Shown: one piece after another, positions 3,001-64,000 of the stretch
Numbering within the stretch: the first letter of the stretch is position 1
How the letters are laid out: each line of letters begins with the position of its first letter
Source: Raillietiella orientalis
Taxonomy: Eukaryota
Assembly: GCA_036172245.1 (NCBI GenBank)
Contig: JAYWIR010000005.1
Location: forward strand, 2,356,001-2,420,000
Direction of reading: 5' to 3'
DNA: 64,000 nt
Made by a program: the position numbers and the translations under genes
Notes under the pieces: generated by a model
What the model was told of the DNA's origin: nothing
Databases searched by the model: none
Seen by the model: the letters and a program-made list of their open reading frames with translations, nothing else

Positions 3001-3207
3001 CTCGGCGTTGTCGGGGATGATTCCGGGGTGGACGCCCCTCATTCTGCAGGCTGTGGGGGTGGGCAAGCCTCCCCCACACCTACCTCCATCGTGGTGTCCT
3101 CAGGCATCGCTGCCATCGGACACCAACGATGTTCCACACGAACACACACAAAGAAAAAACCGCTTCCTGTCGACTCGCTCGGGAGCTCAGGAAAAGCACG
3201 TCCGCTC
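1..3207 (-). mobile_element. L1/Tx1-like non-LTR retrotransposon, subfamily B, 5' part (5' end, ORF1, APE, linker); runs off the left edge; disrupted
   Basis: 5' motif GAGCGGACGTGCTTTT (revcomp, ends ~3207). ORF 2190..2987 has two CCHC knuckles (CDAVGHLRKRC, CHLCGVKGHVPRVC). ORF 384..1151 has APE motifs NVYAP, GDFN, IDH, SDH. KAPGQDGLPAEFF is encoded near 120-160. Confidence 0.93.
1386..3116 (-). pseudogene. ORF1 (gag-like, zinc knuckle), frameshifted
   Basis: Pieces 2190..2987 and 1674..2036 are homologous to the intact ORF1 at 45275..47371; ends with ...SQE*. Confidence 0.85.
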
Positions 3208-6135
3208 GCCAAGGGATTTGGGGAAGGGCCGCGTGACGAAAGGTGCTATCTTCAGGCACGACGTTACGTGAGAACCCTCGACATGCGCAGGTTAGCAGAG
3301 TATCGAGCGGGAGCCGAGAGGCAAGCCTGGCAATCCGGGTCAACTAGCTTCCTGGACGACCATGGCCGGGAGCACTCGGCTCCTGCTCAGAAGCGCGGGA
3401 TTGTGAAGAAATTTTACTCCTCCCTGTACGCCAGGGCGCCTTCGGAGCAAGACGTCTCACGACTTCTGCTTCCGGAAGGTGCTCCAGCGATCGGGGAGGA
3501 GGAGAAAAGAAGCCTCGACGAGCCTTTCACAATGGACGAGATCCTCTCGGCCATCGGAAAGCTCAAGAGGCGGAAGGCTCCACGGGAGGACGGCCTGCCC
3601 GTGGAGTTTTACCAAACTTTTGCGGCTGAGCTTACCCCCCTGGTACAGCAACTCACCTTGCTGATTCGAGAGACAGGTGACGTTCCCACCTTGTTTCGTT
3701 CAGCAAAGGTGCGGCTCCTCCCGAAGGGAGGAGACCTAAGGAGCAAGAACAACTGGCGTCCCATCACAATAGTGAATGCGGACGCCAAGTTGATAGCCAA
3801 GATGTGGGCAGGGCGTCTGGGACGGGTTGCCAACATCTTGATCAGCCCGGAACAGCCTTATGCTGTTCCCGGGCGGAGCATGGCGGCGAACCTGATCCAC
3901 GCTTCCACATGGTTAGAGCTCCAACAAGGAAGGGGCTTATTAAGCAGCCGGAATTCCGGTGCGTCCGTTGGCGGGAGACGAAACGGTTGAGTGGGGAAGG
4001 GAGCCCTTGCGGTCGCTGTCGACTTGCGTAAAGCATTCGACAGCGTCGACCAGAATCTCCTGCTGGAGCTTCTGGAACGCTTGAGCTACCCGTCCTCTTT
4101 GTTGGCCTACCTGCGCTCCAGCTGGCGCGACGAGCTTATTAATGTTCTTGTCAGCGGGCCAACCGTGCACAGAGTACCGGTGCGTAGCGGCATACGGCAG
4201 GGAGACAGCCTGGGCCCCCTGCTCTTTAGCGCCTTTTTTGAATTGGTGCTGAGAGCGTACAGGGAGACTCTGACGCAGCTTATGCGCGATTGTCTTGGTA
4301 CGTGTGCGGTTTCGGCATAAGAGGACGATCTTCTGCTTCTGCTCCCTATGTCCACCCCGGCTGCGGCGGTCGAGGAGTTCTTCGACCTGCTGCATCGGGG
4401 AACCGGACTTACGGTGAACAGGGCGAAGTCGTCCGTGATGCCAGTTGGTGCGGCGTGGGCAGGGCAGCAGGACTGGGTCCATTTGGGGATCCCCACGGTG
4501 AGGTACTTCAAGTACCTTGGTGTGCCGTTGGGGGACTACTCCCCTGCGGAAGCGTGGTCCGGCTGCCTTCAAAAAGTAGAGACGGCGATCGGCCCGTTCC
4601 GAGGCGGCAGGTTTTTCCTGCCTGAACGGGCCGCGGTTTGGAACACGTTCGCGGCTCCTCTTCTCCGGCCCCTGCTTTCTGTTTGCCCCTCCACAGAGAG
4701 GATTAAAAAGCGGACAAAGGACCTCCTCCGTATCGCCCTTTGGGGCAACGGGAGGGCCCGAGTCCGCTCAAAGGACTTGTGCGCTCCTCGTCGGGATGGT
4801 GGTCTGGGCCTCCTGACGCTGGAGCGGCTGGAACTTCAGCTCCAGTTCCGCTTGTCGGCACTCGTTCCAGAGTTGTGGTGCACCTGTTGGTGCGTCCCTG
4901 CACGTCTCCTTCTCCAGCAAGCCACCGGCAAGACGGGACTGACGTCGTTTCTTGCACTCCGTCGCCGCGTCAACCGATGCGGACTCCAGCTACGGAGGGT
5001 GGCTGTGCTGTATTGGAAAAACCCAGGATTGGTCACCTGTCGCCCTCTGAACGGTTGTGCCTGGTTGCAGGAAACCGTTCGAACGTGGGGACAGTTCGGC
5101 ATGCAACACTCCCTACAGTAACGAAGGTTCCTGTTTGGGGGTTACAGAATTTGCACGCTCCGCGAGATTGTGGAGGATCCAAAGAAGAGAGCGTGGGTAG
5201 GAAGAACCCCCCTCGCTGCTGCGCTGCCCTCCCTGATGGAAGACCTGGACAGCGATGTTGCGGCGAAGTGGGTGGTTACAGTAACAATCTCCAGAAAGGA
5301 GAAGAATATAGGAGAGTGAAAGACGGGCCGGTTAACAGACGCTGCGACCCCGAGTACGCCTCCCAATGGACTTCTGCGCTGGGGCGCGCTGTTCGATGTT
5401 CCCATTGAACATCTGAAGTGGCCCCAGGTGCTCATGAACACTTCCGCCCTCCCCTTAAAATGGCAGGAGTCGGCTCTTTTGCTGCAGCACTGGGAACTCC
5501 CCTGCAACGCCCGCCGACTCCACTGGACCTGAGGAGCGGTGGACCCCAATTGCGTCAGGTGTGGGGAACGGGACTCACTCCCCCACCTGCTAGTGGATTG
5601 TGTTGCCCTTCGGCCCCTTTGGTTTCGCTTCGCCGCGGCCATCGGAATCCCCTGCGGCAACCCCAGGGACTCACTGAAAGCCCTCTTCGTTGCCGACGCC
5701 CTTCGGCCAGCGGCCATGTTAGCAGCTTTGTGCTGCCTACGCGGGATCGTTTCCGCTTGGAGCAAGGCTACGGCAGTACAACGCAACCAGGGTGCCATCC
5801 AGCCAGCCACCCAGTTCCAGAGGAGGGCGTCCCGATGGCCTCACCTGGATCTTTGAATACAGAAGGAGCTTGCCGGCATCCTGCAAAGGATGCAACGCCC
5901 CACCAGCAGCTGTGATCCCTTCCCTTACCCTCCCAACTTTTCTTTTCTTTTTTTGTTTGGTTTTTTGTTTTTCCCCTTCCCACTGCTGCCGTGGTGGACC
6001 GTACCGGTCTGCGAATCGGTAACCCGGCAGGCTCTGTGTTTCCTCGTGGGTGGCTGGAGCAATGGTCCAGCCACCGCACGTCTGTGTAAATGTTTATTTT
6101 ACAATAAACGCCCCGGCGAAATCCGGGTGAAAATC
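3208..6135 (+). mobile_element. L1/Tx1-like element, subfamily A, ORF2 linker-RT-CCHC plus 3' UTR (host remnant right of the 1-3207 insertion)
   Basis: KAPREDGLP, WRPITIVNADAK, DLRKAFD, GIRQGDSLGPLLF, *EDD (decayed YADD), KYLGV, CVRCGERDSLPHLLVDC. Terminal AATAAA-hairpin at 6103-6135. Confidence 0.93.
6103..6135 (+). terminator. Conserved 3'-terminal AATAAA + GC hairpin (representative copy)
   Basis: AATAAACGCCCCGG-CGAAAT-CCGGGTGAAAATC; 12 copies, each at an element 3' end. Function is inferred. Confidence 0.65.
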
Positions 6136-6666
6136 GAACGCCTTGTGGAGATCGACCGCGACCGCGAACGCACCTGCGTTCCTTCCTGCCGTAGGCGCCT
6201 GTTCTTTTTGCCTGCGGCAGTGACTTTTGCAGCAGCCTGGCTTTGCTGCGCCACAACTTCCTGCAGCTGCATCTATGTACGCGCGAAAAGGATGTTCGCC
6301 TCTATGGATCGTCCCTGAACCGCGTAGGTTTGTTTCGGGCTCACCACAGATTCCGCGATACTTCCTAACCGCGCGACCCACAGCTTGGAAAACAACTTGA
6401 CGTCCGAAGATCATGTCCGTGGCGGACATGATCTTCGCCATCGAGAAAGGCTCCTCGAGTTGATGTTTCTGCTCCTTCTGTAGCGCGGGGGCGTTTTTCG
6501 GAAGCAAGCGCTGCGCCACGGCGCGCTCTGTTGTTCTACGCGCGTACAAAAAGGAGTAAAAGTTCCAAAGAAAGCGGTTTATTTTCGCGGCAGCTGAGCA
6601 TTCCTGGCCTTGGGCGTCCAGCAAGCTCGCTGACCAGGATTGCCAGGTCTGTCGCTTAGCCCCAGC
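6136..6666 (-). mobile_element. Chimeric ORF2 fragment (subfamily D linker joined to subfamily E RT up to DLHKAFD)
   Basis: 6420-6666 matches 30975-31220; 6136-6405 matches 62750-63020. The join carries a palindrome at 6405-6437. Confidence 0.8.
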
Positions 6667-9468: not shown

Positions 9469-9631
9469 TCTTCCCCATCCCCTTCCACTGCCGAGGAGAG
9501 CCACACCGAACTACGAACCGGTGTCCCGGCAGGTCCGGTATTGCGTGGCCGTCAGTGAGGTCTTGTACCACGTTCTGTAATGACTGTAGACATGTTTTTT
9601 AATAAACGTTTCGGCGTACCCGAGTTGCATC

Positions 9632-10093
9632 GCCTAAACCTGAAGTGAGAAGGTTCAAGGGAAACTGGTCGCAGAACTCGCGGAGTGAGTTCTTCAAGTC
9701 GTCCCAGTCTGCGACTTACTGCAGATGGAAGCCTTGCAGGAACGAGCGAAGATGTTGCGCTGCTCCTGCGAGGCGCACCTAGTTCCTTGGCAAACGCCAC
9801 GCTGTGGAGGGTGGACCTCTACCGCGCGGGTCTATTTCTAGCACGAGCCGGGGATGGTCGGAAAGTACGGATGGTACTGCCCCTCGATTTCCCACCCGCG
9901 AACACAGGTGGTTGTCGAGCAACATGTGGTCGATCCTCGTCTCCGTCCCGGCGTCACCGGCCAACAAGTTGCGCGCGTGCATGGCGGCGCACATCTCGTT
10001 GACCAGCTGTGCGCGAATGTCGGGTGCGTTGAAGCAGGCGGACGTTAAAGTCCCCGGCAATGAGGTGCGCCTTTCGCATGTGTGCTTCGGTAA
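9632..10093 (-). mobile_element. APE C-terminal fragment, subfamily D
   Basis: KAHLIAGDFNVRLL..APDIRAQLVNE..RIDH..SDH..FPLNLLTSGLG; close to 53040-53491. Confidence 0.85.
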
Positions 10094-13000: not shown

Positions 13001-13180
13001 TTACTTCTCGGCGCTGCTGCTGCTGCTGATGATGGTCCCCGGTTGCACTCTTTCCACACTGGCGTTCACTCAAACACTTGCCCTCTCAGGGCACTCAAAA
13101 ATTGCCTTGGCAGTGGTTTTAAACACTGCCTTGGCGGGTTATTGGGTATAGTTTTAAACTAGCAATAATCACGCCTCCCT
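10094..13180 (-). mobile_element. Divergent L1-clade element: 5' UTR, ORF1 with three zinc knuckles, APE; 3' part missing
   Basis: ORFs 12134..12997 and 11406..12071 (CTGCKQFGHRAGAC, CFRCGKVGHQVRNC, CSFCKKHGHAEGSC). APE motifs WNVNG, LQETH, GVAVL, NVYGP, GDLN, IDH, SDH in 10776..11372 and 9779..11146. Lower GC than its neighbours. Confidence 0.88.
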
Positions 13181-41400: not shown

Positions 41401-41688
41401 CTCCTACCTATGGGAGGAGATCTCAGGAGCATGAACTTTTGGCGTCCCATCACAACAGTGAATGCGGATGCCAAGGTGATAGTTGCCACCCGGTCACGCC
41501 GGGGCGTTTATTCAAAATTCTCTTGGGTTCGTGGTACGAGGCCCCACTACGGCCAACTCAACTGGACCTGCCGGGTCGCCGGTACGCAGACCGGCGCGAC
41601 TCTCCTCGGCAGCGGAAGGGGGTGGGGGAAAAAACAAAAAGAAAAATAAAACATAAAAACAAAAAGATTTGGGAGGGTTGGGGAGGGA

Positions 41689-44600
41689 TCACTGACCACT
41701 GGGAGTAGGGTCCATCCTTCGCAGGATGCCCTCGAGGTCCGTCCGTATAATTCCCAGGTGGGGCCATCTGGTCACAATCCGCAGGTAGCGGACTGCAAGT
41801 ACGACGGCATCCCTGTCGTGATTCGGTCTTCCGACGTTGCTCCAGCACGTCACAATCCCGCGTACGCAGCAAAGTGCAGCCAGGGCAGCGGCTGGACGCA
41901 CGGCATCATGCACGAACAAAAGCCGAAAAACGTCTCTGGGCTAGCTGCCGTCCTGGATCCGTAGGGAGGCACGAAGACGTTCCCACAGGGGTCGGAGGGC
42001 AGCACAATCAACAAGGAGGTGGGGGAGGGTTTCCCGTTCCCCACACCTGATGCAGGTAGGATCTACTCGACCCCTGGTCCAGTGGTGGCGGCGTGCGTTG
42101 CAGGGTAGACCCCAATGCAACAACAGAAGCGCCGACTCCTGCCACTTCAGGGGGAGGATCCTAGATCCAATTAATACCGGGAGCCACTTCAGGTCATCCG
42201 GCTGGATGCCGAGTAGCTCGCCCCATCTCTGCAGCCCTCTCGGCTGGACACTAGGGGTACTGGCGTCCGCCAGTTCACCCGTGGACCAGCCGCTGATCAA
42301 CTTCTCCTTGTCTGCGATGCGGCAGGAGACTTGCCACCTAGACTTGCGGCTGCTGGAGAGCGCCCTCCTCAGGAAGGGCAACGCCGTAGCTAGGGGGGAT
42401 GTCTCTGCCCACGTGCTTCTCGCGGGACACTGAAGTATCTTCCGCAGAGTGCAGCGGGAATAGGCGCCGCGTCGCAGGCAGTTCCACATCTCTTCATTTT
42501 TTTCAATTATCTTCGCCCACGTGCCAGCTGTCTCCTCCAGCCATGCGGAGGAGTTGGCGGGGCTGCATACCATCCAGCCGTTTTCCTTAGCCAGAGTTGC
42601 CATGCGTCCCAGGAGAAGTCCGCATCTCTTGATCTTCCTGCCACGGCACAGAAGATAGGACGAGAGACCCTCCGTTCCGGATACACGGCTGGCAAGGAGT
42701 CGGGCCGGAACGCACCAAGAAGTGCTCCATAGCTTCGCTGCGATGGCGAGGGTTCGCCACCGCAGCTGAATCTCTAATCGCTCCATCGTCAAGAGGCCGA
42801 GACCGACATCCCGACGTGGAGCACACAAGTCCTTCAACGGGACTCGCGGCCTCCCTCTTCCCCAAAGGGAAATTCTCAGGAGGTCCTTTGTCCGTTTTTT
42901 CAACTCTCTGGGGACGGGGCAAACAAAAAGCAGGGGGCGGAGGATAGGAGCCGCGAACGCGTTCCATACAGCGGCCCGTTCCGGAAGGAGAAATTTGTCT
43001 TCCAAGAACGGGCCGATCGCCGTTTCCACTTTTTGGAGGCAGCCAGACCACGCTTCCGCAGGGGAGTAGTCCCCCAACGGCACACCAAGGTACTTCAAGC
43101 ACCTCGCCGTGGGGATCCCCAAGCGGTCCCAGTCCTGCTGCCCAGCCCACGCCGCACCGACTGGAACCACCGTCGACTTCGCCCTGTTCACCGTCAGTCC
43201 GGTCCCGCGGCTAAGAAGATCGAAGAAATTCCCGATCGCCTTCTCCGGGGTGGACATCGGCAACAGAAGCAAAAGATCGTCGGCGTACGCTGCTACGGCG
43301 GGCGTGCCGGGGCACAAGCTCGGCAAGGGGGCCAAAGTCACCCTGTACGCTCTCAGCACCAACTCAAAGTAGGTGCTAAAGATCAGGGGACTGAGGCTGT
43401 CGCCCTGCCTATGCCCCGCCGTACCGGCACGCCGTACGCCATTTGACCTCTGAAAGAGATATTCATCAGCGCGCCGCGCCAGCAAGAGCGCAGGTAGGTC
43501 AGTAGGAAGGGAGGGAAGCCCATGCGTCCCAGGAGCTCCAGCAGGAGATCCTGCTCCACGCAGTCAAACGATTTATGCAGATCGACTGCGATCGCTAGGG
43601 CTCCCTTCCCCACCTGGGAGTCCTGTCCCTGCCCGGCTGACGCCCCCAAAGCGGGGCTGCCAATCCTTCTCTCTTCCTTTTCTTTACTACTCTGCACATG
43701 GAACCATGTGCTCGCGAAGAAGAGGTTGGCCTCCATACTTCGCCCGGGAACAGGGTAAGTCTGCTCCGGGCTAATTATGGAATTGGCCACCTGCCCCAGA
43801 GGCGAAGCGCACAGTCCGGCGATCAGCTTGGCGTCCGTGTTCCAAATTGTGATCGGATGCCAGTTGCTGAGTTTCCTGAGGTCTCCTCCTTTCGGAAGGA
43901 GCCTCACTCTGGCTGACCGAAACGAGGCGGGTACATCGCCTTCATCTCGGATCAGCCTTGTCAACTCAAGCACCAGGGGTGCCAACTCTGCCGCGAAGCA
44001 TTGAAAAAACTCCGCAGGCAGGCCGTCCTCCACTGGTGCTTTCCGCCTCTTGAGCCTTTTGATACCGGCGAGAATTTCGCCGGTGGTTAAAGGCTCGTCG
44101 AGGCTTTCCTTCTCCTCCTCCCCTATTGCCGGGGCACCGTTCGGAAGCAAGCGCCGAGAGGCATCTTGGTCCGGGGGCGCCCTGGCGTAAAGGGAGGAAT
44201 AAAAAGGCCGCACGAGGTGCCGTATTCTAGCCGGAGCCGAGTGCTCCCGGCCCTGGTCGTCCAGCAAGCTGGCCGATCCGGATTGCCAGGCTTGACGTTC
44301 GGCCCCGGCTCGGTACTCTGCCAGGCGACGGACATTGGGGGTCCTCGCGTAACGACGGGCATACAAGTACGCTCGTTCGTTACGGATGCCCTCCCCAAAT
44401 CCCCGGAACAGGAGGTGCAAGGGGAACTCCTCGCAAAACTCGCGGACCGAGGCCTTAAAAAGGTCCCAATCATTAAGATTGCGGAGGGTGACGCCTCTCA
44501 GGAATTCCCGAAGGTGTTCCTTCGCACCTGAGAGTCGCGTCCAGTCCCCAGGCAGACGCCACGCCCTGGATGTGGGGCCCTTGTCGCGCGGGCACACCTC

Positions 44601-45275
44601 GAATATCAACCGGAAATGGTCAGACAGCTCCGACGCAACTTTCCCCCGTTTGCCGACCCGTAAACACAGGTCGACATCCAGGAAGACGTGGTCGATGCTG
44701 CTGACCATTTCCGAAAGATCCCCTAACAAGTTGCGCGTGCGCATGGCGGCGCACAACTCGTTAGCCGTCCGTTCCTGTGCGTGTGGCTCACCTGTTAGCA
44801 GGCGGAGATTAAAGTCTCCCGCTATCAGGTGAGCCACGCACACGTTTGCTTCCGCCAGCCAGTCGTGCTCCAGGGTTTCCAGGAACTCCTTACGTTCCTG
44901 GTACCTGGTAGGACCGCTCGGAGCGTACACATTTGTTACGACGAGGTCGATCGTGTCGGACCACCTGAGAATCAGCTGGCCGACACGACCGGCTTCGTCG
45001 AAGCGCACGCCCTTCACGGCTGCGTCGACTGCCGGCTACATAAAAAACGCAACGCCGCAGGTGTATCGGGTGCCGCATTGCCACATCAACCGTCCCCCTG
45101 CGATCCTTTCGATCTCCTGGGCGTTCTCCGCGGTGATCACGTGGATCTCCTGCAGGAGTGCCAGGTCGAAGTCACGCAGGGTGGCGGCCGTGTCCCGTCT
45201 GTTGCCGTCGTCTCGCAGCCCATTGACGTTCCAGCAGGCCACGCGTAATCGACGGCGACAGGCGAGCCCAGATGT
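41689..45275 (-). pseudogene. ORF2 APE-RT-CCHC, frameshifted
   Basis: ORFs 45036..45242, 43383..45017, 41941..43485 and 41689..41919 are consecutive pieces with all motifs, including AYADD. Confidence 0.92.
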
Positions 45276-47371
45276 TACTCCTGGGAAAGTGGCAATGGGG
45301 CTCCCGCCACCTGGTCGGGCGGGACGGATGGAGGAACGGGATCACCGCGCACCGGTTCTCCCTCCTCCATGGGGGCCGATTCCTCGGCGGACAGCAATGG
45401 TTGAAGGGGGCGGGTTTCACGCACCTGCTCCCCCTCTTCCATGGGGGCCGATTCGTCGGCTGCGTTGGACGGCAGGGGGGAGCGGTTGTCAGCTGTCTGC
45501 TCCCCCTCCTCCATGGCTATCTCCTGGACAGGTTCCACCGTTGTGAGGGGGCGACAATCACTCACCTTATCCCCCTCCTCCATGGGGGTCTCCAGTTGCT
45601 CGGTAGCGGAGGGTGGGAAAATCCCTCCCTCCGTTCCCACGCTGCCGGCTTCCCCCTCGGATGCCGGTGCGTCCCCCTCCTTCTTTGTCGGGATGCGCCT
45701 TTTGGGATTCTTGGACTTCCGTCCAGTCTTCTTCGGAGGCGCCTCCGCGGAGGAGGACGCACTTCCGGCATCCGATTCGTGGTCACCTGTCCGAGGTGCC
45801 TTACTCGCGGCCGGCCTTTGCAAGGCCTTTCGCGCGCCGTTCTCACGCTCCGCGAGTTCGGCCGCGAGCTCTTCCGCCGCCTGCTGGAAGGCGGCGTCCT
45901 CGATTGCGGCGAGCGCGTCGCTCGGCTCCCCCTCTGTTTGCACAGAGGGTTCGCCTTTTTCGATCGCGGCTTCGGCGTCAACGAGGCGGGAGATATCTCC
46001 CCCGGTGGAGGTCTCGGGGATCTCCACTCGCTCCAAAGCGACCGAACATTCGCGGAGCAACGCGCGGCGTTGTCTCCTATTTAAAGAAGATGTCGCGGGT
46101 TCCGCTGTCGGTTCTTCGGTTTTCTTTAATTTTTTACTTTTAGGCTTCGCCTTATGCCAGTCCTCGCTCTCTCCAGCGTCGTCGGGAGTACCCTCGACCG
46201 ACGCTTGCTGCACGGGTTCGGGCTCTGGCTGTGGGTTCCGCCTCTCGGGTGCCTCCTTAGGCTTGTCCGATCGCCCTGCGCGTTTCCCTTTGGCTTTTTT
46301 CAAAGCAGGGGGAGCCGGGGTTTCGCGTTTAGGACACACCTTCCGCAGGTGGCCCTTTTCGCCGCAGTGGAAGCACTGGATGTGGGGGCACCGTTTTTTC
46401 AGGTGCCCTGTTGCATCACAGTGCCCACAGTACTTGGGCTTGCCCACGTACCAGACGTCGACGACCTCGTTGCCGACGTCGAGTTTGTGGGGCAGCCCAC
46501 CGTTTTCGTGGACCGTCACACGCGCTGCAGCCATGCCACTGAACAGTCTTCCGTATGTTTGGAAGACGTTGGGCTTGTTCCAGAGCGCGTGCACCGTACC
46601 ATGTTTTTGTAACTCTTCCTGCACGCCAGCTTTGGTCATGCAAAGAGTTACACCCGTAAGGTGGGCAACAATGGAGCGGTCCTCCGTTACAGGGAAGACC
46701 TTTCGGCCTTCCAGAGTGATGGGAGTGTTCAGCAGGCGTTGAGCCAGACTTGCATTTTTGCACGTCAGCTCCACCCGCTGGCCCCCACTCATCACGGAGA
46801 GACCTTCCAGGTCTTCCTCTTTAACATCCAACCGCTGTAACTCCCTTTCAAAGTTACGAGCGGTGTTCCCTATAAACAGGTTTCCTACCTTGTAAATCAA
46901 GGACGGCTTGTATCCTTGTTCCAGGTAGGCCCGTTGTTCTGCTAAGGCAGCAGGAGATGGCGCTGCAGCCACGGAGCTCCAGGTCTTCGTGCATGGAGCA
47001 GGTGGATCCAAGGACGCGGTTGCCCTCTTTTTCAAGGAGGCGTTTGCGCCCTTTTCCAAGGCGGCGGTTGTCCCCTTTTTCAAGGGGGCGGTTGCGACCT
47101 TTTCCAAGGCGGCGGTTGTCCCCTTTTTCAAGGGGGCGGTTGCGGCCTTTTGCACGAGGACGGTTGCTCCCTTTTTCAAGGTGGCAGTAGCCCTCGTTTC
47201 CGGAGAGGCAATTGCCCCCTTTTTCAAGGGAGCGGTTGCTCTCTCCTCCGTGAGAGCAATTGCCCCCACCTCAATAGGTTGGGGAGAGGAGCAATCCTCT
47301 TCCCCGCCTCCTTCCATCGCGGTGTCCTCAGGCATTTCTGCCATTGGACACCGCAGATGCTCCACACACAA
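45275..47371 (-). CDS. ORF1 gag-like nucleic-acid-binding protein (two CCHC knuckles, long low-complexity tail); real start probably the ATG near 47344
   Basis: 698-aa open frame; CGHCDATGHLKKRC, CFHCGEKGHLRKVC. Confidence 0.9.
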   Translation of the reverse strand: MCVEHLRCPMAEMPEDTAMEGGGEEDCSSPQPIEVGAIALTEERATAPLKKGAIASPETRATATLKKGATVLVQKAATAPLKKGTTAALEKVATAPLKKGTTAALEKGANASLKKRATASLDPPAPCTKTWSSVAAAPSPAALAEQRAYLEQGYKPSLIYKVGNLFIGNTARNFERELQRLDVKEEDLEGLSVMSGGQRVELTCKNASLAQRLLNTPITLEGRKVFPVTEDRSIVAHLTGVTLCMTKAGVQEELQKHGTVHALWNKPNVFQTYGRLFSGMAAARVTVHENGGLPHKLDVGNEVVDVWYVGKPKYCGHCDATGHLKKRCPHIQCFHCGEKGHLRKVCPKRETPAPPALKKAKGKRAGRSDKPKEAPERRNPQPEPEPVQQASVEGTPDDAGESEDWHKAKPKSKKLKKTEEPTAEPATSSLNRRQRRALLRECSVALERVEIPETSTGGDISRLVDAEAAIEKGEPSVQTEGEPSDALAAIEDAAFQQAAEELAAELAERENGARKALQRPAASKAPRTGDHESDAGSASSSAEAPPKKTGRKSKNPKRRIPTKKEGDAPASEGEAGSVGTEGGIFPPSATEQLETPMEEGDKVSDCRPLTTVEPVQEIAMEEGEQTADNRSPLPSNAADESAPMEEGEQVRETRPLQPLLSAEESAPMEEGEPVRGDPVPPSVPPDQVAGAPLPLSQE
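47010..47245 (-). repeat. ~24-bp/48-bp degenerate tandem repeat in ORF1 (ATAPLKKG / TTAALEKG)
   Basis: Repeated ccctttttcaagg...gcggttg units; visible in the ORF1 translation. Confidence 0.85.
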
Positions 47372-47689
47372 ACACTACCGAAAAAGAACGCTTTACAACA
47401 GGCGCAGAGAAGCGCGGAAAAAACACGTCCGCACGCCAAGTTGATAGCTAAGGTTTCGGCTGAGAGTTTGGGACGGGTTGCAAACGCCTCCATCAGCCCG
47501 GAACAGACGTATGCTGTTCCGGGGCGAAGCATGGAGGCGAACCTGTTCCACGCTTTCACCTGGCTAGAGCTCCAACACGAAAGGGGCTTGATGCGCACCG
47601 GGAATTCCGGTGAGTTTGTTAGCCATGCGACGGATGGTCGGATGGGGGAGGGAGCACTTGCGATCGCTGTGGACTTGCGTAAAGCATTC

Positions 47690-49119
47690 GATTTTTGCCC
47701 TGATTTCCCTGGGCGTTTATTGTTTAATAAACAATCACGAAGACGTGCATTGGCTGGACCTTTGCTCCAGCCACGCACGAAGAAACACAGAGCCTGCCGG
47801 GTCACCGGTTCGCAGACCGGTACGGTCCACCACGGCAGCAGGGAGAAGGGGGAAAAACAAAAAACAAAACAAAAAAGAAAAGAAAAGTTGGGAGGGTACT
47901 CGAAGGGATCACAGTTGCTGGTGGGGCCGTTGCATCCTTTGCAGGATGCCGGCAAGCTCTTGCTGCATGCCTGGATCCAGGTGAGGCCATCTGGACGCCC
48001 TCCTCAGGAAATGGGAGGCTAGCCGGATAGCACTCTGGTCTTGTTGTCCTCCCGTAGCCTTGCTCTAGGCGGTGACCATCCCGCAAAGGCAGCACAGGGC
48101 TGCTAACGAGGCCCCTGGCCGAAGGGCGTCGGCAACGAAGAGGGCTTTCAGAACGTCCCAGGGGTTGTTGCACGGGATTTCGATGGCCGCGGCAAAGCGA
48201 AACCAAAGGAGCCGAAGGGCAACACAATCCACTAGCAGGTGGGGGAGGGACTCCCGTTTTCCACACCTGACGCAATTGGGGTCCACCTCTCTCCAGGTCT
48301 TGTTGTGTCGACGGACGTTGCAGGGGAGTCCCCAGTGCTACAACAGGAGATCCGACTCCTGCCATTTCAAGGAAAGGGTGGAGGTGTTCATTAGTACCGG
48401 GGGCCACTTCGAACTTTCAATGGGAACGTTGAGCAGCGCGCCCCAGCGAAGTAGTCCATGGGGAGGCGAACTCGGGGTGGCAGCGTCTGTTAACTGGCCC
48501 GTCTTCCACTCTCCTATCTTCTTCTCCTTCCCGGAAATTGTTACTGTAACCTCGCACTTCGCCGCAACATCGCTGTGCAGATCTTAAATCAGGGAGGGCA
48601 GCGCAGCAGCGAGGGGGGTTCTTCCTGCCTACGCTCTCTTCTTTGGATCCTCCAGGATCTCGCGGAGCGTGCAGCTCCTGTAACCCTTAAACAGGAACCT
48701 TCGTTTTTATTGTGAGCGTTGCATGCCGAACTGTCCCCACGTTCGAACGGTTTCCTGCAACCAGGCACTACCGTTCAAAGGGCGACAGGTGACCAATCCT
48801 GGGTTTTTCCGGTACAGCGCAGCCACCATCCGTAGCTGGAGTCTGCATCGGTTGACGCGGCGACAAAGTGCAAGAAACGACGTCAGTCCCGTTTTGCCGG
48901 TGGCTTGCTGGAGAAGAAGACGTGCAGGGCTTCCCCAACAGTTCTCCACAACTCTGGAACAAGTGCCGATATTCGGAACTGGAGCTGAAGCTCCAGCCGC
49001 TCCACCGTCAGGAGGCCCCGACCACCGTCCCGACGACGAGCGCACAAGTTTTTCAAGCGGACTCGGGCCCTCCCGTTGCCTTAAAGTGCAATACGGAGGA
49101 GGTCCTTTCTCCGCTTTTT
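47690..49119 (-). mobile_element. Subfamily A element, 3' 1.4 kb
   Basis: Inverted close homologue of 4703-6135, including 3' UTR and terminal motif ending AAAATC. Confidence 0.92.
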
Positions 49120-50869
49120 AGTTTGACAAAGGACAAGGGGCCTCATTAGAAGAGCCCTCTGGGGCAATCGGAGGCCCCGCGTCCGTCTTAAAGACCTGTG
49201 CGCTCCACGCAGGGACGGTGGACTTGGTCTCCTGACGCTGAAGCGCATGAAGCGACAGCTCCAATTCCGTAAACTTGCCCTTGTGGCAAAGTACTGGACC
49301 TCACCCTGGTGTGCACCTTCACGACTGCTGGCTCACAGGGCAACCGGCTGCCATGGATTGACCTCAATCCTAGTATCCAACGACCGCAGCCTTAACCACT
49401 GTTGTTTTCAGCTTCGAAAATTGGTTGCCCTGTTGAGAGACAATCCGTGGATCTCCTGCATCCCAGCGGACTGGACTACCTGGCTACAGGAATCCGTTTC
49501 CGCATGGGCTACAATCAACGGCTCCAGCGATGAGGACTTCTCCTGACTCCGTAGAGGCAGGCACGCTGGTCAGTCACTGCAGGAGATCGTCAGCAGCCCA
49601 CGGAAGCTTCTGTGTTCCTCCTTTACCCCCCTTGCCCCAGTGCTGCCCTCCCTCAGGGAAGTTCGTGACAGCCGCCAGGAGGCATCGTGGGAAGTGTGCT
49701 GCTTCATCGGAGGCAGGAAAAAATTATTGAAGGCGTGGACGTCTCGGGAACTAGCGGACGCTAGTACCCCGAGTGTCCCGCCGAATGGACTTTCACGCTG
49801 GGGCGCGCTGCTCGAAGTACCTCCGGAGGAAATGAAGTGGCCCCCGGCGTCGTAAGATAACGGCACCCTTCCCCTGCAGTGGCAGGAGACGGCTTGCTTC
49901 TGCTCCATTGGGGACTGTTAAGAAGAGCGCGCTTGTCTCTCTGGACACACGGGAGTTTGCACCCGGTCACGCCGGGGCGTTTATTCCTAAACACTTTGTT
50001 TTCGCGGTACGAGGCCCCGCTACGGCCAATAGTTCTTTAGACCTGCCGAGAAGCTGGCTCGCAGGCCGGCTTGACTCTCCTCCGCGACGGAGGGGTTAGA
50101 GGGTAAAAACGAAAAGAAAAATAAAAGAAATAAACGAAAAGAAACTATTTGGACGGCCGGGAAGAGATCAGAACCCGCTGGAGGAAGAGACCATCCTTTC
50201 GAGGTTGGTCACAGGACACACGGGAGTGTGGATGCTTATTGCCCAGACTGTGAAGAACGAGAAACCTTTCCTCACTTTATTGTTGAGTGCGTTGCCCTAC
50301 GCGATATCTGGGACCGACTCTCGTCGATATTGAACATTCCGCGGGGCAATCCGAAGAACATTTTTCGACTCCTGATGCGGGACGCCTTGCCAGCTTCCGG
50401 GTGTGTAGCGGTGCTTTGTTGCATACGCGGAATACTGGACAAGTAGACCGCGTCAAGGAGAGGACATGCCAGTCGGAATGCCATCCACTGGGCAACCATC
50501 TCCTTGGAGAAGGCCTGCCGTTGGCGCCGACTTGGGAAACACTTACAGGCACTCGTGCGCATACGTGACCGGATGCAGAGGCCTTCTCACGGGGTACCGT
50601 GATTCCTACCCTTTCCTCTTCTTCCCGAAGAACATTGCCCCCCAGACGTTTTCTTTTTTTTTTTTCCTCTATTTTTGTTTTTCCCCGCCCCATCGCCAGT
50701 GTTGAAGACCATATCGGCCTTCGGATCGGTAAGGACAAGTGCCTCAATACAGTCTGGCAAAGTTTCCAGACTGAAGAAAACTTAATTGAAGAAATATGAC
50801 TTTATTATAGAATTTTGTGCACTTGAAAAATTTTAGTAATAAAAGCCCCGGCTCACCCGGGTGAAAAAC
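49120..50869 (+). mobile_element. Subfamily C-like element, ORF2 C-terminus and 3' end
   Basis: RVRLKDLCAPRRDGGLG, EEMKWPPAS, CPDCEERETFPHFIVEC. Terminal motif 50838-50869. Confidence 0.88.
49955..50213 (-). mobile_element. ~260-bp 3'-UTR-only insertion with TSD
   Basis: ggacacacggga(gt) at 49943 and 50214. The insert has the 3' UTR layout and terminal motif of subfamily B. Confidence 0.9.
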
Positions 50870-53491: not shown

Positions 53492-55610
53492 GATGTTACC
53501 CGGATACGCCAAGACGTTTATTAAAAACATTTCAACAGTCAATACAGAACGTGGTACAAGGCCACACTGACGGCCACGCTATACCGGAACTGCCGGAACA
53601 CCGGGACGCAGCTCGGTGTGGCTCTCCTCGGCAGTGGAGGAGGATTGGGGAGAAAAAAAAATAAAAGAAAAGAGAAAAACAAACCACAAAAAAAAGTTTG
53701 GAGGGCCGGGAGGGGATCACAGAAAACTGCTGGGAGGGCCCATCCTTTGCAGGATGCCTTCAAGTTCCATTTTCAGTTTTGCTCGATGGGGCCATCGGAT
53801 AGCTCTCTGCAGGAAGCGAGAAGCATACTCGATCACGTTCCTCACGATGCAGTCTTCATCTTCGGCATCACTCCAGTCCGCCACGATACCACGAATGCAG
53901 CAAAGTGCTGCCAGGGCTGCGGCTGGACTGATCGCGTCCCGCGCGAACACAAGACTGTAGACACATCCAACATTGCGAGCATCCGGTATCCCAAGGGCCG
54001 TTTTAAGACGATCCCAAAGAATCCGGACGGCAGGGCATTCCACTAAGAGGTGGGGGAGCGACTCCCGCTCCCCATACTTGGCACACGCAGGATTTACTCT
54101 TCTTTGCGTCCAGTGGAAGCGGCGCGCGTTGCAGGGTAGACCGCAATGCAGCCACAGAAGCGCTGATTCTTGCCACTTCAGGGAAAGAATCCTGGATCCA
54201 AGTAGAACCGGGGGCCACTTCAGGTCATCAAATCGGATGCTGAGCAGCTCGCCTAATTTTCTTAATCCACGCGGCTGGAGACTAAGGGTCGTTGCTTCTG
54301 TCAACTCCCCCATGGTCCAGCCGCTCATCATCTTCTCTCTGCCTGCGATACGGCAGCAGACTTGCCACCTTGGCTTCCAACTTTTGTGGAGCTCCCTTTG
54401 GAGGAAGGGCATCGCCGTAACAAGGGGTGTGCCTTCCGCCCACGTGTACCTCGGTGGAAATTCAAGAATTTCACGAAGAGTTCGGCGGAAGTAAAAGCCG
54501 ACTCGCAGGCAGTTCATCCGGTCTTCGCACCTCTAGTTCTGCTTAGCACAGGTGCCAGCAGTCTCTTCCAGCCAAGCGGAGAAGTTGGCGGGCCCACAAA
54601 CCATCCAGTCGTTCTCCTTTGCCAGGGTTGCCATGCGGCCGAACAGTAGACCGCATCCTCGAATCTTCCGGCCAGGGCACAGAAGAAACGATGCGAGTCC
54701 TTCGCAGCGGGACACATGCCTGGCCAGGAGGCGGGCCGGAATGCACCAAGCGGTGCTCCACATCTTCGCTGCGATGGCGAAGGTTCGCCATCGCAACTGG
54801 ATTTCCACGCGCTCCAGCGTCAGGATGCTCAGATCGCCGTCCCGACGCGGAGCGCACAAGTCCTTCAAAGGGAAACGGGGCCTCCCCTTGCCCCAAAAGG
54901 GCTATGCTAAGGAGGTCCTTCGTCCTCTTTTTAACAACTCCTGGGGCGGGGCAAACAAAAAGCAAGAAGCGGAGGATAAGGGCCGCAAAGGCGTTCAAAA
55001 CCACGGCCCGTTCTGGCAAGTGAAACTTGCCTTCCAGGAACGGGCCGATCGCCGTCTCCACTTTTTGGAGGCAGCTGGACCACGCTTCCGCAGATGAGAA
55101 GTTTGCGAACGGCACACCGAAGTTCTTGATGCACCTTACCGTGCGAATTCCCAGATGGACCCAGCCCTGCTGCCCTGCCCACGTCGCTCCAACTAGGAAC
55201 ACCGACGACTTCGCCCTGTTAACCTGTAATCCGGCCCCACGGCTAAGCAGGTCGAAGAAATCTCCGAACGCCTTCGTCCGGGTGGACATAGGTAAGAGGA
55301 GCAGAAGATCGTCGTCATACGCCTCTTTGGCTGGCGTGCCGAGGCACGAGCTCGGCAATGGGGCGAAAGTCACCCTGTACGCTCTCAGCACCAACTCAGC
55401 GTAGGTGCTAAAGGGCAGAAGGATTAGGCTGTCGCCCTGCTTCATGCCCCGCCGCACCGGCACGCCATACACCTTTTGTCCACTGAAAGTAATCGAGATT
55501 ATCGCGTTTCGCCAGCAAGAGCGCAGGTAGGAAATCAAGGAGGGTGGGAAGCCCATACGACCCAGGATCTCCAAGAGGAGTTCCTAGTCAACACAGTCGA
55601 ATGCCTTGTG
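53492..55610 (-). mobile_element. Subfamily B' element, RT (from HKAFD) to 3' end
   Basis: Inverted homologue of 7365-9631; ORFs 54543..55574 and 53717..54517. Confidence 0.92.
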
Positions 55611-59326: not shown

Positions 59327-61306
59327 TTCGCTCTCGTCTCCGTGCTTTCATCCGCTTCATCTTGGCGTCGTACATTTTGACGACGATGTCGACCCAACTT
59401 GAAGCTACTGAAGTTGGAGGAGCAGCATATGGATCTGCAATCGCGGAACCGACGGCCGCCTCCACTTCGTCATTCTCGCTAATGGAGAGGAGTTTTGCTG
59501 ACGTTGCTGCCACAGCAGTAGTCGAAGGGAAGCCACTCGACGAGTCGGAGTTGCGGGCATACGTAGCCGAAGGCTATAGACCTGCTCTCCGATATAAGGT
59601 GAGTGGTTTTCTTTCTGCGCGCGACGGGAATCAGTTCAACGATTAACTGACCCGTGTTGGCGTGCGGGAGGAGGACCTTCTCGCCATTATGCCCGTAAAA
59701 GACATGGGCTATTCCAAGGTGCGTTGCAAAGACGCTGCACTTGTGCAACGCTTGCTGCGCACCCCGTTGTCGATCCGTGGCCAGAAGGTCTTCCCGGCAT
59801 CCATGGACGACTCATTTGTGGCAGAGATTTTCGACATCGAGTCGGAAGTCTCCGATACTGATATTCGGAACGCGTTGGCGAAATTCGCCACGGTCCATGC
59901 GCTGTGGAGGGTGCGTAGCAACCTCAAGGACTTCCCGTCCATACACAGCGGAGTCGCTGGAGTCCGGCTTACAATGCCGGACCGCCGTCTGCTGCCCACC
60001 CAACTACAGGTGAAAGACACGGTCGTTCACCTGTGGTTCGTGGGCAAAGTAAGAACGTGCGAGCAATGCGAAAAGGAGGGGCATTGTTTGGATAAATGCC
60101 CCTCTGGAAAATGCCGTTATTGCAAACTATCCGGGCACCAATTGAAAAATTGCCCGGATCTTTTGCGAAAAAAGGCAGCCGCGGAGCTCCATCTTAGAAA
60201 ACAAAGCGCGGATAAAAAGAAAAAATCTGCGAAAAACCTGGAGATTCACGGCAGAAATTCCGAAAAAACGCGAGGCGGAATGTCGCCCCAAAGCAGCAGG
60301 AAACCTCGCACGCGAAGCCCTGCGCGTCCCCTCTCGCGGCAGGGGAGCCGCAAAAGAAAGGGTGCGGGGAATCCGGGGCAATGCTAAGTCCCCCTAGGCG
60401 CAATAGCTGTCCTTCGCAAGCACGCCCGGCTCTTTCGGAGTTCGAGCAACCGGCGGGGACGCCAATGGACAACAACGGTAAGGAGAATTCCAGTACCGTC
60501 AGATCCATTCCTTCACTTCCTGCAGTGGCTGAGAAGCCCAAATCGGGTAAGAAGGGTTGTGCCGTGTCGACTTCGAAAGTCGGCAAAAAAAAATCCGCGT
60601 CGCCACCCAACACCGGGAAAGCGGAGAAAACTCTCACGCCGTCGCAGTCGGAGAGCAAGCTCTCGACTGGCGCGGATGCCATGCCAACGAAGGGATTAAA
60701 AGCCCTTCCGAAGGCAGCGTCCATGACGAGCGTGTCGGAGCCATCGAAAGTGCTCCCGTCCAAAGACGCGGACGGCTTCAAAGATGGCAATGGAACACAA
60801 TCTCCATTTACGGCGCCACGCGAAGTGAGGAACCGTAATGAAGTAAAGAAGACTTCAGCAAAGGTCCCTCGCGCAACTGCGCGTGAGCACGCTGAAAACG
60901 CGCGCGCCGGGAAAGCAGCCGTCACCAAAAGCGATGCTCTGGAGACGGAAAAAGACAACAGGACAGCTGTCAATCCGGAAGAACCTGTCACTACTTCGCG
61001 GAAGGCCGAAACTCGATCGAACATGCGCCGGTCGGACTCCGAAATGGATGCCGTTCCGATCACCGAGACGAGGACAACTCGTTCGAAAGCGTGTGCGCAC
61101 CGATTAATAGTAGGCAGCCAGGCAACGCTCGCCGCGAAGCCACGCGAAGTCTCCACGAAACCCGACGGGGTTAAGCCTGGCGTGGAGGCAGTACATGCAT
61201 GCAGCACGACAAAAGACGGTGGCGACCGTCCCCTCCAGCCAGTCGTGCTGCTCGCCGTCTGCTCGCCGGATAAAGCGAGTAAAAAGCCGCCACCTTCCCA
61301 GCAGTA

Positions 61307-64000
61307 ATGCGGGGAATCGCGTCTTCTCGTTGTCTGTCCGTAACGTGTTGGAACGTGAACGGACTACAGAACGACGAGAAGAGGCGATTAGTAGCCAACG
61401 CCCTGCGCCCCTTCGACCTCGCGCTCCTGCAGGAGATTCACGTAATCTCCGACGAGCAGGCGGCCGAAATCGAGGAGCACGCAGGCGGAACGCTACATTG
61501 GCGGTGCGGCGGCGCACACACGTGCGGCGTCGCGTTCCTCATAAGAGGAAAAATGGCGGAAGCGGTGCGTGGTGTTCGTTTCGATGACGACGGACGGATA
61601 GGCCAGCTTGTCATCAAGTGGTCCGAGTCCATCGATCTCGTCGTTACGAACGTCTACGCGCCGAGTGGCTCTCGCTACCTCGAAGAAAGAGTAGCTTTCT
61701 TTGGTGAGGTGCAGAGCCACTGGCTCAACAACTCCGGCTTCAAAGTGGCGCACCTCGTCGCTTGGGACTTCAACGTCCGCCTGCTCTCCGACGATTGGAG
61801 CCGCCCGAGGGAGCGCGCGCTGCCCATCGAGATGTGCGCGTCCGTGCACGCCGCCAACTTGATGGTCAGCGAACCTGGAATGGAAAGATCGCTCGATCAC
61901 GTTTTCCTCGATAAAAACCTGCATTCGCGTGTGGGTAGGAGAGGAAGATTGTTGACTAGGCTTTCTGACCACCACAGGTTGGAGTTTGAGATCCTTCCGC
62001 CAGGCAGGGGGCCTCCGTTGCAAAACTGGAGGATGCAGGCGGATTGGCTTAGCCAACCGGAGGCTGCGGAGCATCTACGTGGATACCTCCGAGGCTTTGC
62101 CATTCAGGAACTTGCGGACTGGGACGATGTCAAAAGATCTGTCCGCGAGTTCTGCTGCCAATTCCCCTTGCACCGGCTTCCATGCGGTTTCGGAGAGGGC
62201 GTGGCCAACAGTAGAGACTTTCTGCAGGCCCGCACGTTTTCGAGACTCGCGGATGTCGGGCGTCTCGCAGAGTACAAGGCGAGGGCCGAGCGCCAGGTCT
62301 GGCAGTCCGGAGCAGCATGCCTGTTGGACGACAAGGGCCAGGAATGTTCGGCCCCAGCCGAAGTACGCCGCATTGTGAGACGCTACTACTCCTCGCTCTA
62401 CGCGGAATCCCCGACGGAGGATATTCTTTCTGAGATACTCCTATCTCAGGATGCTCGTGTTGTCGGCGAGGAGGAACGAGAACGTCTCGACGAGCCCTTC
62501 ACGGCGGATGAATTTTCATCCGCCATCGCTGGGCTGAAGAGACGAAAGGCGCCAGGCGAGGATGGGCTCCCTGCAGAGTTTTATCAGTGCTTTGCAGTGG
62601 AGCTCATTCCCTTGATGCTGAAACTCGCGACGCTGATGAGTGAATCCGGGAATGTCCCAGATTCCTTCCGCTCAGCGAAGGTGCGTCTCCTGCCGAAAGG
62701 CGAAGACTCGCGCCAACTTAACAACTGGCGTCCGATCACCTTGGTGAACTCGGACGTCAACTTGTTTTCCAAGCTGTGGGTCGCGCGGTTAGGAAGTATC
62801 GCGGAATCTGTGGTGAGCCCGGAACAAACCTACGCGGTTCCGGGACGATCCATGGAGGCGAACATCCTTTTCGCGCGTACATGGATGCAGCTGCAGGAAG
62901 TTGTGGCGCAGCAAAGCCAGGCTGCTGCGAAAGTCACTGCCGCAGGCAAAAAGAACAGGCGCCGACGGCAGGAGGGAACGCCAGGTGCCTTGGCGGTCGC
63001 GGTCGATCTTCACAAGGCGTTCGACTGCGTAAACCAGAAGCTCCTCTTGGAGCTTATGGAACGCCTTGGGTTCCCGGCGCAACTCCTGCTGTATTTGCGC
63101 GCGTGCTGGCGCCACGCGCTAACCTGCATCACTTTTAGCGGCTGCCGCGTGTATGGTATTCCCGTTCGTAGGGGCATCCGACAGGGCGACAGCTTAAGCC
63201 CGTTGCTCTTCAGCATCTTCTTTAAGTTGGTGCTAAGAGCATACAGGCTGACGCTGTCTCACTTGCCAAGCTCCTGCCCGGGAACGCCTGCCGTGGCCGC
63301 CTACGCTGATGACCTGCTTCTTCTGCTCCCCATGTCCACCCCGGCGTACAGTGTCGAGGATTTCTTCGACCTGATTCGTCGGGGAGCGGGCGTGAGCGTG
63401 AACAGAGAGAAGAGCGTGGTCGTTCCTGTGGGTACGTCGTGGGAGGGGCAGTCCGACTGGATCCGCCTGGGGATCCCCACGGGCGGGTACTTTAAGTACC
63501 TTGGCGTTCCGTGGGGCGCTTTCGGCGCAGCCGAAGCGTGGGCGGACTGTCTTCAGAAAGCAGAGTTGGCCATCAGCCCGTTCTTTAACGGCAAGTTTAC
63601 CTTGCAGGAACGGGCGACTATTTGGAACACCTTTGTGGCCCCCCTCCTCCGTCCCCTGTTTTTTGTTTTGGACCCCCCCTATGCGGCGAAACAGCGGGCT
63701 AAGCGCCTGCTCAGGAACGCTCTCTGGGGTCTGGCGAGATCCAGGATCCGCCTTAAAGATTTGTCAGCTCCGCGTCGGGATGCTGGTTTGGGTATCCTGA
63801 CAATGGAGCGAATCGGACTGCAGGTGCAGTTCCGACTGCTGGCACTGTGTGCCCAGCTATGGACATCCCCCCTGTGTGTGCCAGCTCGCATTCTCCTGCG
63901 AAGATGCGCCGGCAGCGGAGGATTTCTCTCGCTTTTGCCGGGCACTCAATACAGAAAGCGGGGTTTCGGGTTTCCATTGCGGCAGTTGACCGCACTTCTA
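61307..64000 (+). CDS. ORF2 APE-RT, apparently uninterrupted for 898 codons to the window edge (not in the ORF track because it has no stop)
   Basis: Starts MRGIASSRCLSVTCWNVNG. AYADD at 63299-63313 and the last codons are in the same frame, and the track lists no terminated ORF in this frame. GDFN reads WDFN. Confidence 0.85.
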   Translation, partial: MRGIASSRCLSVTCWNVNGLQNDEKRRLVANALRPFDLALLQEIHVISDEQAAEIEEHAGGTLHWRCGGAHTCGVAFLIRGKMAEAVRGVRFDDDGRIGQLVIKWSESIDLVVTNVYAPSGSRYLEERVAFFGEVQSHWLNNSGFKVAHLVAWDFNVRLLSDDWSRPRERALPIEMCASVHAANLMVSEPGMERSLDHVFLDKNLHSRVGRRGRLLTRLSDHHRLEFEILPPGRGPPLQNWRMQADWLSQPEAAEHLRGYLRGFAIQELADWDDVKRSVREFCCQFPLHRLPCGFGEGVANSRDFLQARTFSRLADVGRLAEYKARAERQVWQSGAACLLDDKGQECSAPAEVRRIVRRYYSSLYAESPTEDILSEILLSQDARVVGEEERERLDEPFTADEFSSAIAGLKRRKAPGEDGLPAEFYQCFAVELIPLMLKLATLMSESGNVPDSFRSAKVRLLPKGEDSRQLNNWRPITLVNSDVNLFSKLWVARLGSIAESVVSPEQTYAVPGRSMEANILFARTWMQLQEVVAQQSQAAAKVTAAGKKNRRRRQEGTPGALAVAVDLHKAFDCVNQKLLLELMERLGFPAQLLLYLRACWRHALTCITFSGCRVYGIPVRRGIRQGDSLSPLLFSIFFKLVLRAYRLTLSHLPSSCPGTPAVAAYADDLLLLLPMSTPAYSVEDFFDLIRRGAGVSVNREKSVVVPVGTSWEGQSDWIRLGIPTGGYFKYLGVPWGAFGAAEAWADCLQKAELAISPFFNGKFTLQERATIWNTFVAPLLRPLFFVLDPPYAAKQRAKRLLRNALWGLARSRIRLKDLSAPRRDAGLGILTMERIGLQVQFRLLALCAQLWTSPLCVPARILLRRCAGSGGFLSLLPGTQYRKRGFGFPLRQLTALL

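Follow-up and report, generated by a model that had tools for sequence, protein, structure and literature searches.

How does an L1-type retrotransposon that stops just past a hairpin, with no poly(A) tail, begin to copy its RNA? Priming of L1 is regarded as depending centrally on poly(A), and one study describes the stringent or relaxed nature of ancestral L1 elements as an open question (PMC3747384). The matter arose from a 64,000-nt stretch of the Raillietiella orientalis genome (the window), in which the original prediction saw twelve L1-type 3′ ends with a shared AATAAA-hairpin terminus that switches precisely to target DNA. The feature is real and more exact than first described, the end having been placed 1–2 nt off.

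A nest of related L1-type elements

Related repeats lie nested in the window, which gives 204 self-alignments (Table 1). The hairpin-terminus motif is present at 6103 and recurs: its first 14 bases, with at most two mismatches, have 10 matches against 0.51 expected. The count of twelve 3′ ends also holds, 11 being recovered by script and the twelfth, a degenerate copy, lying on the minus strand.

Table 1. Termini, elements and target-site features in the 64,000-nt window
Feature	Position	Strand	Remarks
3′ terminus, L1/Tx1-type copy	6103..6133	+	AATAAA, 3 nt, 5-bp stem, 6-nt loop, T, tail GAAAA
Target of the 6103 copy: RT coding fragment of a relative	6134..6407	-	Antisense break at KAFD; 95.6% identical to 62750-63024
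3′ terminus, decayed, tail TGCAT	9601..9630	+	Antisense, just past the endonuclease domain of a relative
3′ terminus, tail TCAAA	16389..16418	+	Antisense within a relative's RT region
3′ terminus (twelfth), degenerate hexamer, tail GGCAA	20575..20605	-	
3′ terminus, 6-nt loop, tail GGCAA	26378..26408	-	Followed by ~14 nt of target and the next element's 5′ end; inferred tandem insertion at one site
3′ terminus, tail GAAAA	33795..33824	+	
3′ terminus, tail GTGAA	35997..36026	-	Sense insertion in a relative's ORF1
Full-length copy, ~5.95 kb	41483..47434	-	Shared 5′ motif at 47432, terminus 41483-41512; antisense in a related RT's NADAK motif
Full-length copy's ORF1 with CCHC knuckle	45278-47374	-	
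Full-length copy's ORF2 (endonuclease, RT, zf-RVT), in pieces	43386-45035, 41944-43563	-	
Full-length copy's 13-bp target-site duplication, 3′ copy	41470..41482	-	One mismatch between copies
Full-length copy's 13-bp target-site duplication, 5′ copy	47435..47447	-	
Decayed 3′ terminus, same family as 6103	47692..47721	-	KAFD site of another copy; A.A stem mismatch
5′-truncated copy, 258 bp	49956..50213	-	Terminus 49956-49985, tail GCAAA
Truncated copy's 13-bp duplication	49943-49955 + 50214-50226		
3′ terminus, tail GAAAA	50838..50867	+	
3′ terminus, decayed, tail AACAT	53493..53522	-	Target site same as 9601
Longest open ORF2 stretch, endonuclease + RT	61283..64000	+	Classification sequence; contains the uninterrupted KAFD site

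Domain content and similarity place the elements in the L1 clade, taken broadly to include Tx1, and the L1-type identity first given to them stands. Pfam searches of the window ORFs identified Exo_endo_phos, RVT_1 and zf-CCHC, with zf-RVT weak and below the cut-off. A phmmer search against the PDB, in which L1 and R2 were the only reverse transcriptases among the matches, returned human L1 ORF2p at E 1e-45 and R2 at E 5e-15 or worse. RRM-type ORF1 similarity appeared only as an Atlas lead, at 0.89–0.92; ORF1 types are treated in PMC5203782. ORF2 fragments of different window families are ~50–73% identical over their main alignments, and database homologues are 21–28% identical, except for one hit at 59%.

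A 5′ end motif, GCGGACGTGYTTTT, is common to divergent families; it lies at 3205 (-), 26355 (-), 47432 (-), 55620 (+) and 59312 (+) and is a candidate internal promoter or start element. A more divergent element occupies 9782-13000 (-), with a second endonuclease-like stretch 23–28% identical to the others and a CCHC ORF at 11409-12182.

The elements end five bases past the hairpin

To locate the end of the element, positions were numbered from the base after CCGGGT and the 3′ flank was compared with the 5′ flank. The window and 324 loci yielded 301 well-formed termini; because tail pattern guided the choice of most loci, the tail composition of this set is partly by construction. Duplications (score ≥11) occur at 83 of the 301 termini, versus 3 of 301 in a reversed-flank control. 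Between the flanks of these 83, identity is 11/83 at position 4, 31/83 at position 5 and 74/83 at position 6, and 78–83 of 83 at positions 7–16. Because agreement starts at position 6, the element ends 5 nt past CCGGGT, with a tail of the form G-N-N-A-A/T. The duplicated run stops after 13 or 14 bases in 45/83 cases, a stagger of 13–14 bp, and after 11–16 in 77/83. In a strict check, family homology begins at the duplication in 61 of the 83, and in most of the failures the target is itself a related element. Inserts range from 63 bp upward, so 5′ truncation is seen. The inserts at L048, L010, L020 and L148 are very short (~63–80 bp): they hold little beyond the terminal module, and all four are flanked by a duplication.

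These junctions bear on several details of the original prediction. That the end is fixed relative to the hairpin is upheld by the flank agreement in the 83 duplications, among which an end varying freely around the hairpin was not found. The terminal A(A/T)C first proposed runs too far: the duplications put the last base at 6133 rather than 6135, and the uninterrupted homologue at 63024 reads GCAG|TCGAA, so the TC belongs to target DNA. Nor are there always 2–5 A's followed by C or TC. Only one A precedes the final T in the termini at 9601 and 53522, and TTG follows 36026.

The tail itself is constrained outside the selected set, with G at position 1 in 29 of 30 unselected loci, A at position 4 in 29 and A at position 5 in 28. 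The distance from AATAAA to the end is 24 nt with 5-nt loops (253/301) and 25 nt with 6-nt loops (45/301). In all 13 duplications of the main 6-nt-loop family, G or C precedes the nick, so the last A is element-borne and the end tracks the 3′ arm, not the hexamer. A further family, of 116 copies, ends in GGCAT; among its 29 duplications, 12 have a target without T at position 5 (6/21 in the strict set). Since so many of these targets offer no T, position 5 must be copied from RNA, and that RNA is not poly(A). No terminal tandem repeat that could serve as a start for reverse transcription was present; the duplication begins directly after the non-repeated 5-nt tail.

Poly(A) tails are nearly absent genome-wide

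The exact motif has 1,214 matches in the 210-Mb genome, against 0 for a reversed control, and a slightly wider pattern finds 1,766 intact termini. The absence of poly(A) noted in the window extends to this scale: at least six A's fall within 6 nt of the stem in 1 of the 1,214 exact matches, and at least seven adjoin the stem in 2 of the 1,766. An A7 run lies within 30 nt of the stem at 11 distinct sites among the 1,766. Nine of these were inspected; the A-run is inside the duplication in one, adjoins the stem in another (6–7 A's) and follows target-like sequence in the rest. A looser search, for poly(A) before or inside the hairpin, gave 17 matches versus 11 in the control, and the 10 inspected are old decayed copies with 7–10 A's and no duplication within ~450 bp. 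The single exact match, the few A7 sites and the near-control yield of the looser search together place tails below about 1%. Poly(A) of variable length on other copies, which the original prediction had marked for checking, was thus not encountered as a genome-wide pattern.

Searches for other kinds of 3′ end were negative within their scope. Seven candidates for longer 3′ transductions included none that was convincing. Alternative termini were sought after ORF2 or 3′ UTR homology in a biased sample of motif-centred loci, which showed nothing but the same motif in decayed or interrupted form. In metagenomes, the motif gave one match, an unrelated chance hit.

The terminal hairpin

Both arms, CCCGG and CCGGG, hardly vary, whereas the loops of 78 representatives comprise at least 30 sequences. 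In context, the stem pairs have a median probability of 0.85 (68 representatives), and folding z-scores are weak, from −2.3 to +0.6 for 11 short window termini. A covarying version of the stem had been proposed at 47721, where we find an A.A mismatch, which is decay with no compensation. Covariation was likewise absent at the single stem pair tested genome-wide, where 109 copies are changed on the 5′ side and 109 on the 3′ side only. Six double changes at this pair occur among the first 100 copies listed, and five of them are T-A, as two transitions would give. A covarying stem is therefore rejected at both places. Because double changes occur at the rate that decay predicts, the sequence may be recognised instead of the fold. 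A hairpin fold is nonetheless likely, given invariant complementary arms around a variable loop, and two flanking positions with C/T variation may belong to a lower stem with a bulge.

Rfam searches found no histone stem-loop or other family matching the termini. The sole Rfam match in the window is a full-length U4 snRNA, which may be a gene or a retrocopy, at 13081-13218 (-), with 89.5 bits, amid the retrotransposon nest.

Families insert at their own short targets, often in relatives

The termini fall into 78 clusters by 3′ UTR similarity; many are singletons or short inserts, so not all of them are families. Target preferences differ strongly between clusters, with the caveat that the motifs were read from the same data as tested. 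TCGA follows the nick in 29/35 insertions of its own cluster versus 4/266 elsewhere, YCAG in 18/25 versus 6/276, CNCC in 76/105 versus 16/196, ACAR in 12/21 versus 3/280 and CTYC in 10/12 versus 16/289. The preference continues upstream of the nick: in the GGCAT cluster, 26/29 have a pyrimidine at −2, and in the TCGA cluster, 11/13 have G at −4. As the RNA has no matching bases 5′ of the nick, this points to the endonuclease. Guidance of targeting by the tail was considered and rejected: the score over 78 representatives was 3.08 versus 3.02 when permuted (p 0.13), and one family keeps its target despite different tails.

The targets are not A-rich. A makes up 52 of 260 first-four bases, and only 1 of 65 targets starts with AA, so there is no A-rich primer. 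Taken with the element-borne T of the GGCAT family, this excludes poly(A):T annealing as the normal priming route. Ordinary L1 priming on poly(A) could otherwise be imagined with a start always in the first one or two A's, in keeping with AA at positions 4–5 in ~28/30 unselected copies and with AATAAA 24–25 nt upstream. It would have to accommodate both the T and these targets, and human ORF2p requires ~20 A's and has variable starts (PMC10830416). We consider such priming very improbable.

Many insertions lie in other members of the group. Flanks run straight into a relative's coding sequence in 86 of 284 cases (66 antisense) and in 13 of 30 in an unselected set (10 antisense), counts that are not normalised to the elements' share of the genome. 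There are hot spots: 17 of 89 insertions of one cluster lie just past the endonuclease domain and 13 of 35 of another at KAFD. The KAFD-type sites carry inserts of 174, 180, 493, 689 and 888 bp and thus represent independent events. The antisense bias is attributable to motif distribution, as the window ORFs contain TCGAA 4 times in sense and 21 times in antisense orientation.

Two further arrangements were observed. Tandem insertions with a single duplication between them occur at L002, L012, L063, L202, L215, L225 and L226, with up to three elements (L226), and several full-length copies are arranged in this way. In the GTCAA family (L007, L030, L070, L086 and related loci), targets are alike over ~20 nt and mostly do not code for L1 proteins, which suggests a specific site in another repeat.

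Possible RNA beyond the end

Whether the RNA stops at the end of the element or extends past it can be approached from the DNA around the terminus. The AATAAA, itself demanded by the search patterns, has U-rich surroundings, with 44% T in a stretch of 25 nt, and TGTA occurs upstream in 34 of 78 cluster representatives versus 5 and 9 in control windows. UGUA elements belong to poly(A) signals, and 24–25 nt is a usual distance from AATAAA to the cleavage site. The U-rich stretch, TGTA and AATAAA together fit a putative working poly(A) signal. One copy, L152, ends in GT and 15 A's, with an 11-bp duplication 1,953 bp upstream, exactly at the start of family homology, and is 96% identical to a tail-less relative, L091. 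An A15 tail with a duplication indicates that the element RNA can be adenylated at this end; the tail is a single case, which could be an A-run expansion instead.

These observations bear on the possibility that cleavage or trimming gives the RNA a defined end without poly(A), 5 nt past a protein-protected hairpin, with reverse transcription starting at its last base without pairing. Histone mRNAs likewise stop a few bases beyond their stem-loop. Trimming would account for single-base precision tied to the 3′ arm and for the element-borne T at position 5 in the GGCAT family, and an occasional sixth base would be incomplete trimming. It gives no place to an AATAAA, U-rich sequence and TGTA kept across the sampled families or to the true A15 tail of L152, and the termini resemble neither the histone stem-loop nor any other Rfam family. 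Of the two mechanisms offered by the original prediction, a start at a fixed distance from the hairpin is thus the one we favour, and a defined non-adenylated RNA end is retained as an unlikely rival.

The RNA may also run into the donor flank. Position 6 is mismatched in 9 of the 83 junctions; in eight, the base is the family's usual target base (non-A in six), and the ninth is a slipped tail. At L100 and L307, the replaced bases span positions 6–8. The comparison of position 6 with inner positions is biased by the scoring, and false duplications, of which there may be up to three, push the same way; 5/9 of the mismatched junctions pass the strict homology check. With these limits, the position-6 bases hint that the RNA sometimes carries donor flank.

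If it does, priming could resemble that proposed for R1, in which RNA from the donor flank anneals to the nicked primer, fixes the register and helps transmit the target preference. R1 shows the same precise 3′ junction and a 14-bp duplication (PMC2718515), and the target-like bases at position 6, six of them non-A, and at positions 6–8 are what such annealing would leave behind. Against this reading, the mismatches are few, and the target consensus continues upstream of the nick. Target bases of nearest relatives in the GGCAT family (82 copies; 82 pairs, median 94% identical) are no more alike than those of shuffled pairs (0.463 versus 0.462). At L244 and L251, off-consensus primers are unchanged. 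Annealing of read-through RNA as the determinant of the register is, in our estimate, as unlikely as the trimmed end, although it and a start positioned by the hairpin are compatible with each other and not exclusive.

A proposed start anchored by the hairpin

The reading that we prefer, at a probability of roughly 0.55, is a radiation of L1/Tx1-type non-LTR retrotransposons with a stringent start of target-primed reverse transcription that is anchored by the hairpin and skips any RNA beyond its fixed base, a process proposed from DNA junctions. Each family's endonuclease would set the nick at its own short, non-T-rich consensus. ORF2p would bind the invariant AAUAAA-hairpin module and thereby place the fifth base after the 3′ arm in the RT active site. 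The RNA would usually extend past this base, either with poly(A) at or just past the end or with a few flank bases. This extra RNA would be skipped, so that no poly(A):T pairing takes place and no tail is copied. Endonuclease specificity, no longer tied to T-rich primers, could then differ from family to family, and families with a consensus matching a conserved ORF2 motif would pile into their relatives to give nested clusters like the window. There are precedents for positioning by a hairpin in eel UnaL2 (PMC1636434) and in the Alu stem-loop on human ORF2p (PMC10830416).

A broader proposal falls a little short of an even chance. A lineage of the L1 clade may have abandoned poly(A):T priming for a five-base hairpin ruler that needs no pairing, after which dozens of families, with ORF2 ~50–73% identical, diverged in their targets but retained one terminus, and for several of them conserved coding motifs of relatives came to serve as safe sites.

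These elements provide a large natural set of base-exact, tail-less ends with a shared 30-nt cis element, which makes the proposal testable with short RNAs. The families, which combine one terminus with differing targets, also offer a natural panel on which to map the specificity of APE endonucleases. Precision at the 3′ junction is, moreover, much desired in retrotransposon-based gene insertion.

Comparison with known elements

The elements share with human and vertebrate L1 the two ORFs, an APE endonuclease, RT and a C-terminal zinc domain, as well as duplications, 5′ truncation and an AATAAA near the end. They lack two defining features of relaxed L1, the variable poly(A) tail and the TTTT/AA nick. 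Vertebrate L1 ends in AATAAA and poly(A) (PMC5381506), whereas here a hairpin follows AATAAA and the end is exact and tail-less; the L1 endonuclease nicks 5′-TTTT/AA (PMC1950540), whereas targets here are C-rich. By analogy, the elements would work like stringent LINEs, with R1-like precision.

In the Tx1 group (Tx1L, Keno, Kibi, Koshi and Tx1-Mar), targets are also family-specific and often lie in other repeats (PMC4494074). ORF1 here likewise carries a CCHC knuckle. Unlike the Tx1 group, the elements here use consensus sites of 4–8 bp and have hot spots inside the ORF2 motifs of relatives. Xenopus Tx1L may lack poly(A), in which case the shared hairpin ruler is more of a novelty than the missing tail.

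Hairpins at the 3′ end are known from several lineages. L1 elements of green algae and maize (L1-1_CR and the ME1 lineage) belong to the same clade and have a conserved 3′ hairpin, but the algal elements carry poly(A) at their ends and compensatory changes occur in the hairpin from maize (PMC3747384), whereas the present termini combine invariant arms with the lack of a tail. Eel UnaL2 and zebrafish ZfL2-2 have a terminal stem with a 5-nt loop and a bulge that positions the RT start, but they are of the L2 clade and start, with slippage, in a terminal UGUAA repeat (PMC1636434) that has no counterpart here. Drosophila R1 is similar in its invariant 3′ junction, 14-bp duplication and proposed read-through annealing (PMC2718515) and in its tandem copies at one site. 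R1 occupies a single 28S rDNA site, whereas the present elements are dispersed through the genome at many short targets.

In the literature searched, with most subscription papers outside its scope, we found no description of a tail-less L1 lineage with such a terminus. The available parts of PMC5135761 and PMC4746887 hold nothing on tail-less L1 families; further literature includes a review (PMC12503042) and PMC7265360.

Genomic distribution

The termini are dispersed, yet bunched locally on contigs C1, C4, C9, C11 and C13, with several near contig ends; the bunches are possibly centromere-like nests. At L153 (C20 near 2,925,925-2,926,140), four 62-bp units, each made up of the terminus and 7 target bases, are arranged head to tail, an array that probably arose by slippage after insertion.
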